64,000 nt of DNA from a virus. This document shows, piece after piece, positions 1,079 to 64,000 of this stretch; position 1 is the stretch's first letter, and the number at the start of each line of letters is the position of its first letter. A model generated the notes under the pieces. That model made no database searches and was not told the DNA's origin. It was given only the letters and a program-made list of their open reading frames with translations. Position numbers and translations under genes: made by a program. The DNA lies in IMG/VR virus record IMGVR_UViG_3300042261_000588, positions 1 to 64,000 of that record, one strand, 5' to 3'.

Positions 1079-1486
1079 GGGGGCGTAAGGTATTCGACGT
1101 GTGGTGTTGAAACCTGATGACATGCCGAGGACTCAGGTTGGCCTCGTAAATCTTTCCTGAAAAACACTAACAGGCAAAACTGTTGGATCGGTGACTCGCT
1201 GGTTCTTCGGTCCGGCTTCGGCTGCTCCGATGCTGGCGGCTGCTTAACAGCACACCTCCAAAACGCCAGAGTCTCCACGACATCTGGATGAGGATTAAAG
1301 AATGTGGGTGACGATCTGCAAAGACAGATGATACCGGGAATGAGACGCACCGGGGTAGATAGTCAAAGACATCTCGGAAAGACGGGATAGACCAAGTCCG
1401 GGGTCGATAAGAATCGTGAAGAAGCATGTGTATGTTAGGTAGTATGTGTCATGCGGACAGGAGTTCGACTCTCCTCGCCTCCACCA
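1079..1486 (+). ncRNA. ssrA: tmRNA
   Basis: 5' GGGGGCG pairs with 3' CGCCTCC-ACCA with a G3:U70 Ala determinant; T-arm AGGAG-TTCGACT-CTCCT; 5' TTCGAC motif; tag frame 1173-1247 encodes (A)GKTVGSVTRWFFGPASAAPMLAAA*. Confidence 0.96.
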
Positions 1487-6879: not shown

Positions 6880-6904
6880 TAAATATCTGATACTTGGCAC
6901 ATAA
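6880..6904 (+). promoter_or_regulatory. candidate phage late promoter motif
   Basis: TAAATATCTGATA-N7-CATAA. Confidence 0.4.
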
Positions 6905-6916
6905 ATAGAGGTGCCA

Positions 6917-7329
6917 GTGATAGACAGATTAGACAGCATGGCTGCGAAAGTAGCCTTTCAGTTTTTTCGCAAAAGGGCAGCAAGAAGATTTGATCTTCGA
7001 TGCTGTCTTTTCTAATTTAAGGGAGAAGGATAGAGATTACAAGGATGGTCTTGAACAATCAGCCCGTGATTCTTTAAATAAAATGCTGATAAAAGACCTT
7101 ATTGGTAGAGGGCATGATGTCGTATCCGTCGAAATCAGCTTAGGGAAGTATCGTGGATCAAGGTTCGTTACTTCGGCAAAGGTAGCGGTTCGGTTGAAGG
7201 ACATGAAGGATGCAAAGATTTTGGTAAAGGAACTTCAACGGTATCATAGGCCGTTACTCATTGAAGTCATTTGAGGATGGAGTGGCGGTTTACAACACCA
7301 AAGCGGAGGGTAGCCGAAATGAAAGCTGA
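6917..7329 (+). pseudogene. frameshifted hypothetical gene whose 3' end is the cassette insertion site
   Basis: GAGG RBS + GTG6917 (MIDRLDSMAAKVAF); continuity needs +1 shifts at TTTTTTC (~6962-6968) and CTTC (~7233-7236); the final frame reads ...DGVAVYN at the AAC junction. Confidence 0.5.
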
Positions 7330-7380
7330 CGATTGCAAGACAACCACGGGTGAGGCTTACCCTCCCGAGCCTTGTTCGGC
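7290..7380 (-). mobile_element. attC-like site 4 (array B)
   Basis: TTACAAC...CGGAGGGTAGCC / GGCTTACCCTCCCG...GTTCGGC; two extrahelical bases; ATG7319 in the loop. Confidence 0.75.
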
Positions 7381-7600
7381 CTCATGGCGTTTCCGTGTGG
7401 CCTGCGTAGGTTCGCACATTGCCAAGAAATACGGTCTGCTCTGCGTTGACGAAACGCACGGTGGTCACGACCAGCATTACGGTTGGCCTATGCGGTCGAT
7501 AGGGCTGGAGTGGTCATGGCGGCGGAATACGTGGTTTGCAGGGTGGGTATTAAGGCCGAACACGGTGCTGAGGGGCGACGGCCCCGGAAAGGACGCATGA
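7319..7600 (+). CDS. hypothetical cassette ORF
   Basis: GGAGG RBS in the attC arm; stop within the next attC loop; GC-rich. Confidence 0.65.
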   Translation: MKADDCKTTTGEAYPPEPCSASWRFRVACVGSHIAKKYGLLCVDETHGGHDQHYGWPMRSIGLEWSWRRNTWFAGWVLRPNTVLRGDGPGKDA

Positions 7601-7653
7601 CTACACCAAACACGGGCGCCGGGGCCGTCGTACCCTCCGGCACATTGTTGGAC
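7555..7653 (-). mobile_element. attC-like site 5 (array B)
   Basis: GCCGAAC-5 nt-GCTGAGGGGCGACGGCCCCGG / CCGGGGCCGTCGTACCCTCCGGC-5 nt-GTTGGAC. Confidence 0.8.
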
Positions 7654-7830
7654 GATCTTGAAATCGCGCTCGACAAGATATTCTCCCGTAAACGCGAGAG
7701 ACTCATCACTGGCGGTCAAGTCGTCGGCATGAAAATGTGGCGCACTGAGTTCTCCGGACAGGAATACGGCGACGTGCTCGACAAGGTGAACGCGCTGCGT
7801 GACTCCATAGCGGCCAACATCAGACGATAA
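7597..7830 (+). CDS. hypothetical cassette ORF
   Basis: AAAGGA RBS and ATGA overlap inside the attC loop; uses the backbone stop after the AAC junction at 7818. Confidence 0.65.
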   Translation: MTTPNTGAGAVVPSGTLLDDLEIALDKIFSRKRERLITGGQVVGMKMWRTEFSGQEYGDVLDKVNALRDSIAANIRR

Positions 7831-7980
7831 GAAGGTTCAGATGGCGTATAGCAAGGCGTGGCAAATAACGCCTTTGGTTGGCGACGAGTTTCATACAGAT
7901 GGGCTAATAAATCACGATGGTTATGATTCTGGAATTTCACTTCGAGAAGTGAAGTGATGGAGAGAGGAAGGATGGTCGCA

Positions 7981-8724
7981 ATGAATAGTCGAGAGGATAT
8001 GATTGCAGACAGAGTTGCTCTGGAAGTTTCAGGGAGTGGACTCCCATTGATGGAAGATGATGAGTGGAAAGCTCTGAAACATCAAAAAGACGACAATTTC
8101 CAAAAGACAGAGCGAGATAAAGTTGAGAAACGCCGTATGATTCAGAAGAGGTTGCGTAGAAGAGAGTCATCTGAAATCCTGAAAGTTGCCAAGAGTCTTC
8201 TAGCCAAGAGAGAAATCCAAGACATTTTGAGATTGGCGAAGTCGGTGTTGTCTGGAACGGACACTCGGACAATTCGTGGGACAGGCTGGACAGAGCAGGA
8301 AGCCCTGAAGAATGCCTTGGCAGAGGATGAGCGGGAGTATGGGCACGGGGAAGGCTATGGGGGTGGATCAGGATCATTGAGAGCGGTTATTCGGAAGAAA
8401 GTGATTCGGGAACCGAAGAAGGCAAAGCGGGTGACAATCGAGAAGTTTCCGATACGGAAGGGGCCTGTTGAGAAACGATTTGTCTTGGAACGTCGGTGGG
8501 GTTTTGATCGTGATATGCCGATTGACCGTGATCCGAAGTATCGAGAAAGGTATGAGACGCAGGGACAGGTTCTTGCGGCTGCAAAGGAATTGGCACTTCA
8601 GTACGGCACGGAGTTGGTGATTACGCTGGAAGCCTTCTGTGTTGGGGATACCAAGCTGGCTATTGTGAAGCCGGAAGAGGCACAGACTGGCGAGTGGATG
8701 TTCGAGTGCGATTTCAGGAGTTGA
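7981..8724 (+). CDS. hypothetical protein with repeated ILK/RxAKS helices
   Basis: RBS GAGGAAGG; ORF track. Confidence 0.75.
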   Translation: MNSREDMIADRVALEVSGSGLPLMEDDEWKALKHQKDDNFQKTERDKVEKRRMIQKRLRRRESSEILKVAKSLLAKREIQDILRLAKSVLSGTDTRTIRGTGWTEQEALKNALAEDEREYGHGEGYGGGSGSLRAVIRKKVIREPKKAKRVTIEKFPIRKGPVEKRFVLERRWGFDRDMPIDRDPKYRERYETQGQVLAAAKELALQYGTELVITLEAFCVGDTKLAIVKPEEAQTGEWMFECDFRS

Positions 8725-61959: not shown

Positions 61960-62313
61960 ATGATCGAGAAGGGAACAGTGTTGCGTTGTAAGACGCAGAC
62001 GTTTGGAGATACGTTTGGAATTGTTTTGTGGGAGGTCGTTGAGACCGGGCTTCAAGCACCTGAGAAGGGACGTGAGAATCAAAAGGATGGTGTGAAGGTT
62101 GTCATGCTTGGTGGTTCTGGAGCCAATGCAAGGTCGGGAATTACGCTGACGGACTCCGAGGCTCATATTCAGCAGGACATTGATGCTGGTATTACCACCA
62201 TCGTTCCGTCTGACAAGCGAGAGGATATGCTTCTGAGTATCAAAAAGATGGTGAAGAGTGCGGGTGTTGGCAATATGCCCAAGCACTGTGGAGCCGGAGT
62301 CATCGAAATCTAG
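61960..62313 (+). CDS. hypothetical protein
   Basis: RBS AGGAGG. Confidence 0.8.
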   Translation: MIEKGTVLRCKTQTFGDTFGIVLWEVVETGLQAPEKGRENQKDGVKVVMLGGSGANARSGITLTDSEAHIQQDIDAGITTIVPSDKREDMLLSIKKMVKSAGVGNMPKHCGAGVIEI

Positions 62314-62327
62314 GGGGATCCATCATC

Positions 62328-62861
62328 ATGAGATGTCTTAATTGCGGAAAAGAGTTGTCGACGGGTGATGCTCCGAACAGTGCATTTTGCCGACAATGCC
62401 AAGATATTGGCACTTCGAAGCATTCTATGTCATTTGTAGCCGGGTGTGCAGGATGTGCAAGAGAATACGGTGGAGGGGCGATATGTTCACATTGCACACG
62501 AAATCCGATACACAAAGACATGTGGACCCAGAGATGTCGAGGTTGGATTTCATACGACTTTCACACGACACCACCCAGCGTGACGACTGTCCGCGAATTG
62601 GCATCACCGACTGGTTCGGGCTGCTACGCGCCAGAGCATCACGGACGCTGCTGCTGCAACTGCCGCTACCATCTTCGCGACCACTCGCACCCGCTCACGG
62701 ACGGCGGACGAATCACCGCGCAGCGCGGGTGGTTATGCAGCCCGCCTGAACTCGATGCAGCTTTCAGCGGTTGGTCCGAACATGGAATGTGCGAAATGCA
62801 CGATAGCCCGAATCACGAACGGGGCTGCTCACCCTCGGGCGGCCAAGGAGAAACGCCATGA
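62328..62861 (+). CDS. Cys-rich chimeric ORF (backbone N-terminus fused to cassette-derived C-terminus)
   Basis: Multiple CxxC motifs; GC shift near 62560 and half attC-like site ending GTTCGGG at 62620. Confidence 0.5.
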   Translation: MRCLNCGKELSTGDAPNSAFCRQCQDIGTSKHSMSFVAGCAGCAREYGGGAICSHCTRNPIHKDMWTQRCRGWISYDFHTTPPSVTTVRELASPTGSGCYAPEHHGRCCCNCRYHLRDHSHPLTDGGRITAQRGWLCSPPELDAAFSGWSEHGMCEMHDSPNHERGCSPSGGQGETP

Positions 62862-62913
62862 CAAAACCGAAACGCCAGCGGGCCTCCCGTAGCGGTGAAG
62901 CGGCTTGTTCGGC
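62814..62913 (-). mobile_element. attC-like site (array C)
   Basis: CACGAAC-6 nt-GCTCACC ... GGTGAAGC-5 nt-GTTCGGC; AAGGAG RBS and ATGA junction in the loop. Confidence 0.75.
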
Positions 62914-63118
62914 AGATACCATCCGCATGAACTGGTTGGAAACGGTATCGTGCAAAATATACGGTGTCGCGGTTCCGAGTGGCGACATTACCGTTCTGGA
63001 ATGGGATACGGATGGACACACCGAACGCACAGCCGAGGCCGCTACGCTTCGAGACGCGATTGACGCCGCAATGCTGATGCCGAACATGAGGCTTGAGGAA
63101 CGGAGCGCAGCGGAATGA
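62858..63118 (+). CDS. hypothetical cassette ORF
   Basis: DTIRMNWLE...TLRDAIDAAM; start and stop both lie inside attC loops. Confidence 0.7.
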   Translation: MTKPKRQRASRSGEAACSADTIRMNWLETVSCKIYGVAVPSGDITVLEWDTDGHTERTAEAATLRDAIDAAMLMPNMRLEERSAAE

Positions 63119-63145
63119 CGAATAGCCTCGACTCTCTGGTTGGTC
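63079..63145 (-). mobile_element. attC-like site (array C)
   Basis: Minus strand GACCAAC-5 nt-AGT[C]GAGG ... CCTCAAG-6 nt-GTTCGGC. Confidence 0.65.
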
Positions 63146-63663
63146 TTTCCGGGTTCCGCACGATTGTGGCTGACCCGCCGTGGCCGATCAAGTGGCAGCG
63201 CAACGCCGGGATCGGGAAGCGAGAACTTGACTACCCGACAATGCCGATAGCAGAAATGTGCCTGCTTCCTGTGCGCGAGTTGGCCGACAAGGACGGTTGC
63301 ACGCTGTTTTTGTGGACGACGAACGCCTTTCTTCAGGAGGGGCTAGGCATCGTGAAGGCGTGGGGGTTCACCTATGAAATGCTCTATACATGGTGCAAGA
63401 ACAACGGCATGGGCGGACATCCACGATGCGCCACAGAACACATGATTATCGCCGTACGAGGAACACCAAAGCGTGGAGACAGACACGACCCCATGACGTT
63501 GAACTGGGGTGTGTTTCCGCTTGGCAAACACAGCGAGAAGCCTGAAGCCGTGCAAGACATGATCGAACGGATTACAGAGGGGCCACGGCTCGAACTGTTC
63601 GCCCGTCGCGTCAGGCCGAACTGGGTTTGCTGGGGTAACGAGGTAGAGGCTAACCATGTATGA
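63115..63663 (+). CDS. MT-A70 family N6-adenine methyltransferase (cassette cargo)
   Basis: IVADPPW, YPTM, LFLWTT, WGF, HSEKP, LELFAR, WGNE. Confidence 0.92.
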   Translation: MTNSLDSLVGLSGFRTIVADPPWPIKWQRNAGIGKRELDYPTMPIAEMCLLPVRELADKDGCTLFLWTTNAFLQEGLGIVKAWGFTYEMLYTWCKNNGMGGHPRCATEHMIIAVRGTPKRGDRHDPMTLNWGVFPLGKHSEKPEAVQDMIERITEGPRLELFARRVRPNWVCWGNEVEANHV

Positions 63664-63815
63664 CAAACGGGTTTGTCTCCGTGGGCACAAACGAAGTGCA
63701 ACATGCCATGGATAAAGATTCCTATGTCAAGGGTGCCAACGATGCGCTGGACGGAATTATGCTTCTAGACCTTGAGCAACGGTTGCAGGGACGAATCGAA
63801 ATTGGGAAACAATGA
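63660..63815 (+). CDS. small hypothetical protein
   Basis: ATGA overlap with the MT-A70 stop; 51 aa; below the ORF-track threshold. Confidence 0.35.
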   Translation: MTNGFVSVGTNEVQHAMDKDSYVKGANDALDGIMLLDLEQRLQGRIEIGKQ

Positions 63816-63867
63816 CCGAGGTTGTTTGTGCGAGATTAAACATTAAACGATCAAAAATAGGAGACGT

Positions 63868-64000
63868 ATGAAAAATCGAATTGTGATTGTAACAGCTATC
63901 ATTATAGTTTATGGCGTATTTGCACAGGAGCCTATCAAGGTTGATCTGTCAGAGATGGTGGGTTCGCCAGCGGCGATGATCGCACCACCAATTACTAACT
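63868..64000 (+). CDS. signal-peptide-bearing protein, runs off the window edge
   Basis: RBS AGGAG; MKNRIVIVTAIIIVYGVFA. Confidence 0.6.
   Translation, partial: MKNRIVIVTAIIIVYGVFAQEPIKVDLSEMVGSPAAMIAPPITN

Follow-up and report, generated by a model that had tools for sequence, protein, structure and literature searches.

How can a small gene that lands in the middle of a phage operon be translated there, and what marks its borders? The question is raised by the virus record IMGVR_UViG_3300042261_000588 of IMG/VR (here G000; 143,854 bp, estimated completeness of 67%), whose first 64 kb (positions 1 to 64,000, "the window") contain eight imperfect palindromes of the attC type, spread over three GC-rich islands of small genes. 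Integron cassettes are usually promoterless genes that depend on the promoter of the integron platform and carry the attC site behind the gene. A first-pass annotation of the window had proposed another layout, i.e., that the palindrome loop holds the stop codon of the upstream open reading frame (ORF) together with the ribosome-binding site and start codon of the next, so that each incoming cassette supplies a stop for its neighbor and a coupled start for itself. Our analysis makes it likely that the islands are small arrays of the integron type, known as clusters of attC sites lacking an integron integrase (CALINs), and that they reside in backbone genes with the attC bottom strand as the coding strand. 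The crossover would take place at AA/C (the slash marks the point of exchange), and a cassette would consist of C, the attC site, a gene body, and a terminal ...AA. The evidence comes from site geometry, strand polarity, breakpoints, a codon-phase rule, and the modularity of the cassettes.

The backbone of G000 has a GC content of 47%, a strongly positive GC skew, and genes on the + strand; it encodes, e.g., the alpha subunit of DNA polymerase III, a protein of 2,071 amino acids (aa), a tmRNA, and a tRNA-Met. The islands of small genes embedded in it (55 to 65% GC) are located in the window at 1-790 (array A), 7296-7892, and ~62,400-63,654 (array C). Each of them has two or three attC-type sites at a spacing of 57 to 270 nt and no integrase, and about 10 further sites are present in the remainder of G000 (B1, B2, 80488, C1, 137088, B3, C2, D1, D2, and C3). 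The assignment to CALINs, defined by at least two close attC sites and no integrase, was made with our own covariance model and folds in place of IntegronFinder. In Rfam, the tmRNA and one tRNA were the sole matches. The sites of the window are as follows.

44-101, + strand: attC-type site S0 (GCCGAAC ... GTTGGCG), with the in-phase stop TGA 75-77 in the loop and the next start, ATG125, 3' of the site.
316-418, + strand: attC-type site S1 (GCCGAAC ... GTTCTGC), with GAGGAG and ATG361 in the apical region.
549-632, + strand: attC-type site S1c (ACAGAAC ... GTTCCTG), whose AAC is an Asn codon, with ATG575 and the stop 580-582 (ATGAGTGA) in the loop.
751-757, + strand: lone half-site ACCCAAC in phase 0 (Pro-Asn), read from the sequence and the GC profile; probably the right end of array A, as the GC content drops after ~780.
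7290-7380, + strand: attC-type site S2, the first of its array; TTACAA is backbone, the cassette begins with C7296, and the 3' box is GTTCGGC.
7555-7653, + strand: attC-type site S3 (GCCGAAC ... GTTGGAC; dG of -29 kcal/mol), with AAAGGA and ATGA 7597-7600 in the loop.
7812-7883, + strand: weak third attC-type site S3b (GGCCAAC ... GTTGGCG), with the stop TAA 7828-7830, AAGAAGG, and ATG7841 inside.
62814-62913, + strand: attC-type site S4 (CACGAAC ... GTTCGGC), with AAGGAG and ATGA 62858-62861 in the loop.
63079-63145, + strand: attC-type site S5 (GCCGAAC ... GTTGGTC), with ATGA 63115-63118 in the loop.
63648-63654, + strand: lone half-site GGCTAAC in phase 0, probably the right end of array C, as judged from its sequence.

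The sites share a common plan, in which a 7-nt box with AAC at its end is followed by a short spacer that remains unpaired, and then by an imperfect stem with its loop, the return arm, a second spacer, and a box beginning with GTT. Sixteen sites were folded with AAC forced onto GTT, and the 3' arm was numbered from the last base of the GTT box. AAC and GTT were paired in all of them, the stems comprised 10 to 30 pairs, and 2 to 8 nt per arm remained unpaired beside the R box; the palindromes of the first-pass annotation are thus real. Typical boxes are GCCGAAC, GCCCAAC, or GGCCAAC together with GTTCGGC, GTTGGGC, or GTTGGAC. The site length of 56 to 108 nt, with an apical region of 3 to 38 nt, agrees with the variable terminal structure of attC sites (57 to 141 nt). 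The bottom strand of attC carries the extra-helical bases G16 and T23/24 and an optional base at position 20 (Nivina 2016, PMC5027507). The two main extra bases are ~6 bp from each other, and the distal one is usually T. In our folds, a net extra base was found at position 15-17 in 13 of the 16 sites and another at position 22-25 in nine, including a T in eight, and all extra-helical bases lay on the 3' arm of the coding strand. Examples are S1 (position 17 and positions 23-25), S3 (positions 15/16 and 22/23), and D1, whose A16 and T23, separated by a 6-bp stem, match exactly.

The location of the extra bases determines the polarity. Tetrasphaera phage TJE1, with attC sites known to recombine with IntI1, served as a control for the script used here. 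At its site 1016-1075, which is preceded by a methylase gene that ends inside the site, the extra bases C16 and A23 were located on the 5' arm as seen on the coding strand. It follows that the numbering is right, that TJE1 is organized classically, and that the coding strand in G000 is the bottom strand. The genes of the window lie on the attC bottom strand and are therefore inverted compared to those of TJE1 and the classical integrons; instead of being located on the top strand upstream of their own attC, they start inside or just 3' of the heading attC. A covariance model (CM R1) that was trained on nine + strand sites pointed in the same direction. It found the untrained sites S4 (21.8 bits on the + strand), C2, 80488, and 137088 and six more in the phage contig L075, all on the coding strand. 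The training sites had 14 to 18 bits on the reverse strand versus 60 to 67 bits, the training member S0 scored 46 bits on the + strand, and in TJE1 the model matched the minus strand, opposite to the genes. The long-loop sites S1, S1c, S2, and S3 are missed by this model. The strand stability slightly favored the + strand (14 of 21 sites) and is not decisive.

Two contigs from one metagenome, L090 and L093, which probably represent the same phage, allowed us to locate breakpoints. L090 is syntenic with the window (85 to 93% amino acid identity), and at the place of 7296-7892 it carries 177 nt of an AT-rich backbone gene. The DNA of L090 and the window is identical at 103 of 115 positions through ...TTTACAA (GGTTTACAA) and at only 35 of 99 positions thereafter; position 7296 is C in the window and T in L090. 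Likewise, L093 and G000 share 26 of 30 positions through ...GCAGCAGAA (own position 78000) and 23 of the following 57, with C in G000 and G in L093, whose gene continues for 40 codons beyond the point of divergence. Both breakpoints lie exactly at AA/C and would fit a cut by an integron integrase on the bottom strand. The boxes of array-first sites also appear to be backbone derived in their first bases (TTACAA of TTACAAC and GCAGAA of GCAGAAC; CAC in L075), and the arrays close with lone xxxAAC half-sites (751-757, 63648-63654, and 78515-78523). A separate observation at the second locus (L093 7298-9360 versus G000 77670-78623) is that L093 has, between an SbcC-like gene and the next conserved gene, 2 kb of wholly different small genes, one of them for a methyltransferase, i.e., this is a hyperplastic spot beyond mere cassette insertion.

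Another line of evidence for a crossover at AA/C is the reading frame. AAC is an in-frame Asn codon of each gene running into an internal site, with an ambiguous case in S4. Phase 0 was observed in G000 at S1c, S3, S3b, S5, B3, C1, C2, C3, D1, and D2 and elsewhere in L004, at L075 7031, 8501, 9012, and 9284, at one site of L103, and at two sites of L102; the same applies to the backbone gene that runs into B1, an array-first site. By chance, this phase is expected in one-third of cases per site, and the overall probability is <1e-6. Genes outside this class stop 0 to 10 nt before the site (S1, B2, L075 7400, and L075 8094) or are backbone genes that enter the array-first sites S2 and L075 6780 in another phase; in the case of S2, the small backbone frame fuses in frame into ORF1 rather than stopping. 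The GTT box is crossed in all three phases by the genes starting in the loop. In these frames, the AAC side alone behaves as a joint that has to be crossed by genes.

The cassettes also behave as modules. The homology between C1 and C3 begins at CAAC, spans the site, and continues into a downstream ORF that is the same in both; upstream of it, the ORFs are unrelated. The sites C2 and S2 were encountered again in L075 and L103, respectively, each with different flanks, and the nearly identical S2 site of the unrelated contig L103 has the full TTCCGAAC box. In homologues of ORF1, the alignment starts at residue 22, behind the GTT box (Cys-Ser-Ala in this frame), and extends to ...Pro-Asn, with differences outside this segment, and P0134, a homologue of the gene at 62858, retains the attC-coded leader and differs from ...MLMP/N onward. 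The site families are distributed over unrelated GC-rich phage contigs, i.e., the B type in L004, the C2 type in L075, whose array holds seven sites, the S2 type in L103, and C- and S4-like sites in L102; hence, this design is not restricted to the phage studied here. A search of IMG/VR with two flanking proteins returned no relatives, and the useful ones came from a metagenome collection and a protein look-up. Among 185,579 bacterial and archaeal species genomes, the 3'-end motif of the B/S4 sites had 65 matches versus ~70 expected by chance, none of them with extended similarity; in viral contigs, there was one real match, in L004, and no similarity was detectable between the B-cassette gene and the L004 gene that precedes this type of site. 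The scan with the 5'-end motif of S1/S3 yielded only chance matches in coding DNA.

The genes that start or end at the sites of the window are listed below (a slash separates the cassette-coded end from the acquired tail).

125-310, + strand: cassette ORF of 61 aa with a hydrophobic N terminus and no family match.
361-582, + strand: cassette ORF ending ...IQN/TRLRLRNE; an alternative start, ATG307, overlaps the upstream stop as ATGA.
575-772, + strand: cassette ORF of 65 aa ending ...TPN/LGLK.
7319-7600, + strand: cassette ORF1 of 93 aa; residues 1-21 are attC coded, the body (22-82) is conserved, and the end is ...RPN/TVLRGDGPGKDA.
7597-7830, + strand: cassette ORF2 of 77 aa ending ...AAN/IRR.
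7841-7957, + strand: what is left of a backbone gene, with a new start and ~17 new initial codons; the codons from ~7893 (DGLINHDGYDSGISLREVK) match L090.
62858-63118, + strand: cassette ORF of 86 aa ending ...MLMPN/MRLEERSAAE, with PHROG homology from residue 14.
63115-63663, + strand: cassette ORF for an MT-A70 family DNA methyltransferase, with the domain from residue 14 and the end ...EAN/HV.

With these genes at hand, the translation junctions could be inspected. The signals that the first-pass annotation had named at 361, 575-582, 7319, 7597, 62858, and 63115 are all present; in S2, GGAGGG, ATG7319, and the in-phase TGA 7327-7329 sit in the 5' arm and the loop. Its statement that the loop is the gene junction holds for six of the eight window sites (S1c, S2, S3, S3b, S4, and S5), which contain ATGA or ATGN4TGA or, in S3b, a stop and a start a few bases apart. 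It fails for S1, which has only a start and whose upstream gene stops 10 nt before the site, and for S0, which has only a stop. Overlaps of start and stop are concentrated in the loops, with seven occurrences of ATGA or ATGN4TGA in 217 nt of apical loops versus 1.7 expected from the window-wide rate (P = 0.0016). The recurring peptide ends, PN, QN, or AN before the stop and LLG, LLD, LVG, or CSA after the start, represent the AAC and GTT boxes in frame. In S3b, which is located in a stretch that is not homologous to L090, the loop start now heads the leftover 3' part of the backbone gene. Beyond the window, the arrangement varies. The short 60-nt sites B1, B2, and B3 hold no junction; B1 and B3 have ATGA ~20 nt 3' of the hairpin, and at B2 the upstream gene ends before and the next starts after the site. 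The insertion at B1 interrupted a backbone gene at a Lys codon and gave it an attC-coded tail, whose stop overlaps the cassette start. In D1 and D2, the junction lies within the 3' arm.

Two observations on the attC-coded ends may be added. In L075 7031-7138, the 3' arm of attC codes for a hydrophobic, signal-peptide-like leader of the cassette gene (MNIRTTLAAALAVLSIALLALA), i.e., an attC site can provide a functional-looking N terminus. In addition, the 9-mer CCGAAATGA occurs four times in the window (302, 356, 570, and 7314) versus ~0.25 expected, each time at a gene junction. Three copies lie inside the loops of S1, S1c, and S2 and the fourth just 5' of S1; the 9-mer resembles a GCCGAAC box followed by ATGA and may be a common loop motif or the remnant of a half-site.

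For a cassette to terminate the ORF upstream of its landing place and to start its own ORF, as the first-pass annotation proposed, the attC site must be at the 5' end of the cassette and the crossover on the AAC side. This arrangement is supported by the geometry, the breakpoints, the AAC phase, and the modularity of the homologues. The heading attC would bring a stop in the phase of the AAC codon, which closes the gene entering from the left, and in addition a Shine-Dalgarno sequence, a start, and the first 13 to 21 codons of the cassette's own gene. This gene would have no stop of its own and end with ...x-Asn, and the next attC or the backbone would give it a short tail and a stop, the latter being supplied by the backbone 3 to 5 codons past the lone half-sites. 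The borrowed stop would usually overlap the next start as ATGA. Since the crossover triplet stays in a constant codon phase, any order of cassettes would result in terminated, restartable genes. The recombinase would be an integron integrase supplied by the host or a co-infecting element, translation would be coupled, as the ATGA overlaps suggest, and transcription would originate from the phage backbone. A crude consensus scan detected no sigma-70-like promoter (-35/-10) and no T-tract terminator on the + strand at the sites in 6900-8000 or 62200-63900, which fits read-through transcription from the backbone.

Which other explanations could account for the palindromes? Chance pairing in GC-rich coding DNA has in its favor that a loose scan for AAC...GTT hairpins yields ~70 weak candidates in 144 kb; our rule-based hairpin scan of the whole contig was noisy, with the bulge on the 3' arm in nine and on the 5' arm in nine cases at loose thresholds, and was replaced by the curated folds and the covariance model. 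The curated sites agree in sequence, geometry, and strand, recur in other contigs, and obtain E values between 1e-5 and 1e-13 in the covariance search, and the phase rule (P < 1e-6) also speaks against coincidence. Chance palindromes were ruled out by the folds, the L090 breakpoint, and the covariance model, and their probability is negligible. A classical orientation, with the + strand as top strand, a G/TT crossover on the 3' side, and the start and first codons belonging to the upstream cassette, would match the order AAC...GTT in gene direction, as in classical arrays, and the presence of the same attC-coded leader on different gene bodies with a switch at the GTT box. In chromosomal integrons, it is normal that different cassettes have one attC type in common. 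For a top strand, the extra bases would be on the wrong arm, as the TJE1 control illustrates, the arrays open with backbone-AA/C-hairpin instead of a lone G/TT, and GTT is crossed in three phases while AAC is phase locked, all of which makes this orientation very improbable. The palindromes could also be mainly linkers at the RNA level or at gene junctions, i.e., hairpins that present or hide starts, or boundaries for homologous recombination like the promoter early stem-loop (PeSL) of T4-type phages, with no site-specific recombination involved. The sites are presumably transcribed and translated, their predicted RNA folds (-19 to -54 kcal/mol) place the AUG in the apical loop, the + strand has twice as many G-T pairs as the other strand (27 versus 13), and junction modules common to unrelated genes, as we see them, are what such linkers predict. 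They do not predict invariant AAC and GTT boxes, extra bases at 16 and 23/24, or breakpoints at the single phosphodiester AA/C, and promoter- or terminator-like sequences on the + strand of the sites were lacking in our scan; we regard linkers of this kind as improbable, though less so than the classical orientation.

The source of the enzyme is a separate matter. With identical sites and layout, the recombinase could be phage borne, i.e., an integron-type or Xer-like tyrosine recombinase from the missing third of the genome or from a co-infecting phage. The incompleteness of G000 would leave room for it, A16 instead of G and GCCGAAC instead of RYYYAAC might mean another specificity, unrelated phage contigs share the site families, and the B/S4 motif had no extended match in bacterial and archaeal genomes. 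On the other hand, no recombinase of this family was found in G000, L075, or L004, the geometry equals that of IntI substrates position for position, and published phage CALINs recombine with IntI1 (Qi 2023). A phage-borne enzyme therefore seems unlikely to us, albeit the most serious of the alternatives. IntI is known to insert cassettes at non-att genome sites (Loot et al., bioRxiv 10.1101/2022.09.11.507474), and, by analogy to such attC x attG insertions, a host IntI acting on the phage would be the simplest reading.

Several observations weigh against small integron-type arrays with an AA/C crossover as we propose them. A tyrosine recombinase (PF00589) was not found in the 143,854 bp of G000, in L075 (28 kb), or in L004, all three records being incomplete, and a complete integron, with intI, attI, and Pc beside the array, was thus not recognized. 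At its fourth base, the 5' box frequently has G (GCCGAAC) and thereby deviates from RYYYAAC, and the base at position 16 is mostly A in place of the usual G of classical sites. The 5' box of S4 is ambiguous, because an in-phase CCGAAT is located 7 nt upstream and the folded 5' box is not in phase 0. The L093 breakpoint is based on only ~30 nt of good upstream homology, and the right end of the 7296-7892 insert is no clean AA/C joint, with ~177 nt of backbone lost. Finally, the Shine-Dalgarno sequence is fully paired in the predicted RNA folds of S2, S1c, and C2 and open in the loop in those of S3, S4, S1, S5, and S3b. Its pairing in some sites only does not imply strict coupling, and the hairpin may expose the start as often as hide it.

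T4-type phages reportedly have cassettes of small genes with an early promoter, the PeSL elements (reported by Arbiol et al. in 2010), which are thought to move by homologous recombination. They resemble the present arrays in that small accessory phage genes are flanked by repeated stem-loop junctions and shuffled between phages, but the present sites had no promoter match in our scan and show attC geometry and single-bond breakpoints. CALINs of virulent phages, including methyltransferase cassettes, have been published previously (Qi 2023). Phage TJE1 corresponds to G000 in its attC-type sites between small phage genes, the absence of intI nearby, short arrays, DNA methyltransferase cassettes, the AAC and GTT boxes, and the extra bases at positions 16 and 23. 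It differs in that its genes are on the top strand and precede the site, whereas the genes of G000, L075, L004, L102, and L103 occupy the bottom strand and have their start within the site; the TJE1 paper describes neither loop starts nor a crossover triplet that is locked in codon phase. Classical integrons (Bouvier 2009, PMC2727003; Nivina 2016, PMC5027507) resemble our arrays in that their sites fold as single strands and possess R and L boxes next to an unpaired central spacer, bases outside the helix, and a terminal structure that varies; the AA/C crossover on the bottom strand and the presence of one gene per cassette are likewise common to both. In contrast to them, no integrase, attI, or Pc was found in the incomplete record G000, gene polarity is inverted, the translation junction is accommodated in the variable terminal structure, and the cassette gene does not bring a stop with it. 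The products of attC x attG recombination, i.e., single attC sites lacking an integron integrase (SALINs) and small CALINs (Loot et al., bioRxiv 10.1101/2022.09.11.507474), are similar with respect to one to three cassettes inside ordinary genes, away from a platform and at a minimal target motif. They were demonstrated with IntI1 in Escherichia coli chromosomes, whereas here the process is inferred for a phage genome, and the targets in G000 are A/TT and C/TT on the top strand compared to the GWT consensus. Three features had no counterpart in the literature searched, namely, genes of inverted polarity, a loop that acts as a translation junction, and a crossover triplet locked to the codon phase.

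Some further features of the arrays and their surroundings were recorded. The tmRNA (tag peptide AHLQNARVSTTSG) and the tRNA-Met are located at window positions 1079-1486 and 1746-1822, shortly 3' of array A. The left border of array C could not be derived from a comparison with the distant relative L100, which is too diverged. At 62328-62861, a Cys-rich ORF of 177 aa has a chimeric composition, with an AT-rich N-terminal zinc-ribbon part and a GC-rich rest, and the in-phase GCTCCGAAC at 62369-62377 could be the left border. A perfect mini-palindrome, GACAAAC-GG-GTTTGTC (AAC plus GTT), at 63662-63677, 8 nt past the terminal half-site of array C, may belong to the original target. DNA methyltransferase motifs (NPPY and DPPF) were found in two further cassette genes flanked by D1 and D2 (G000 141698-142944; L074), which raises the number of methyltransferase cassettes in this phage to three, counting the MT-A70 gene. 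The largest GC-rich island of G000 (133051-136850; 61 to 65% GC) has larger ORFs and internal repeats of 125 to 165 nt (135754-136580) and is not obviously built from cassettes. Two 35-nt modules (G000 129184-129218 and 143519-143553), which begin with (A or G)AACAC, contain a small hairpin, and end with CAAGGAG right before the start codon, stand before two unrelated small genes and look like a second, shorter kind of junction module. Unrelated to attC and possibly regulatory is a family of AT-rich intergenic repeats of ~35 nt (84 to 100% identical) at G000 68931-68965, 69563-69597, 71807-71837, 73449-73474, 132182-132213, 133026-133058, 138873-138904, and 141541-141584.

Overall, the same recombination chemistry apparently is used in reverse, with an attC site that precedes the gene, carries its translation signals, and has a crossover locked to the codon phase. 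As a tentative proposal, for which the odds are somewhat below even, phages may keep their own mirror-image integron cassettes, in which the hairpin heads the gene and serves as a plug-and-play translation junction. With the crossover triplet being an Asn codon, any order of cassettes, or insertion into any translated gene in that phase, would generate a terminated upstream protein and a restarted cassette protein; such cassettes would be silent in a bacterial integron, where their genes run antisense to Pc, and phage operons would be the only place of their expression. If true, this would explain how phages drop small accessory genes, e.g., methyltransferases and unknown small proteins that may counter host defenses, into transcribed operons with their expression kept. 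It would also provide a rule for finding the boundaries of phage cassettes, namely, an AA/C joint with Asn in phase, and it predicts a strand preference in attC x attI recombination.

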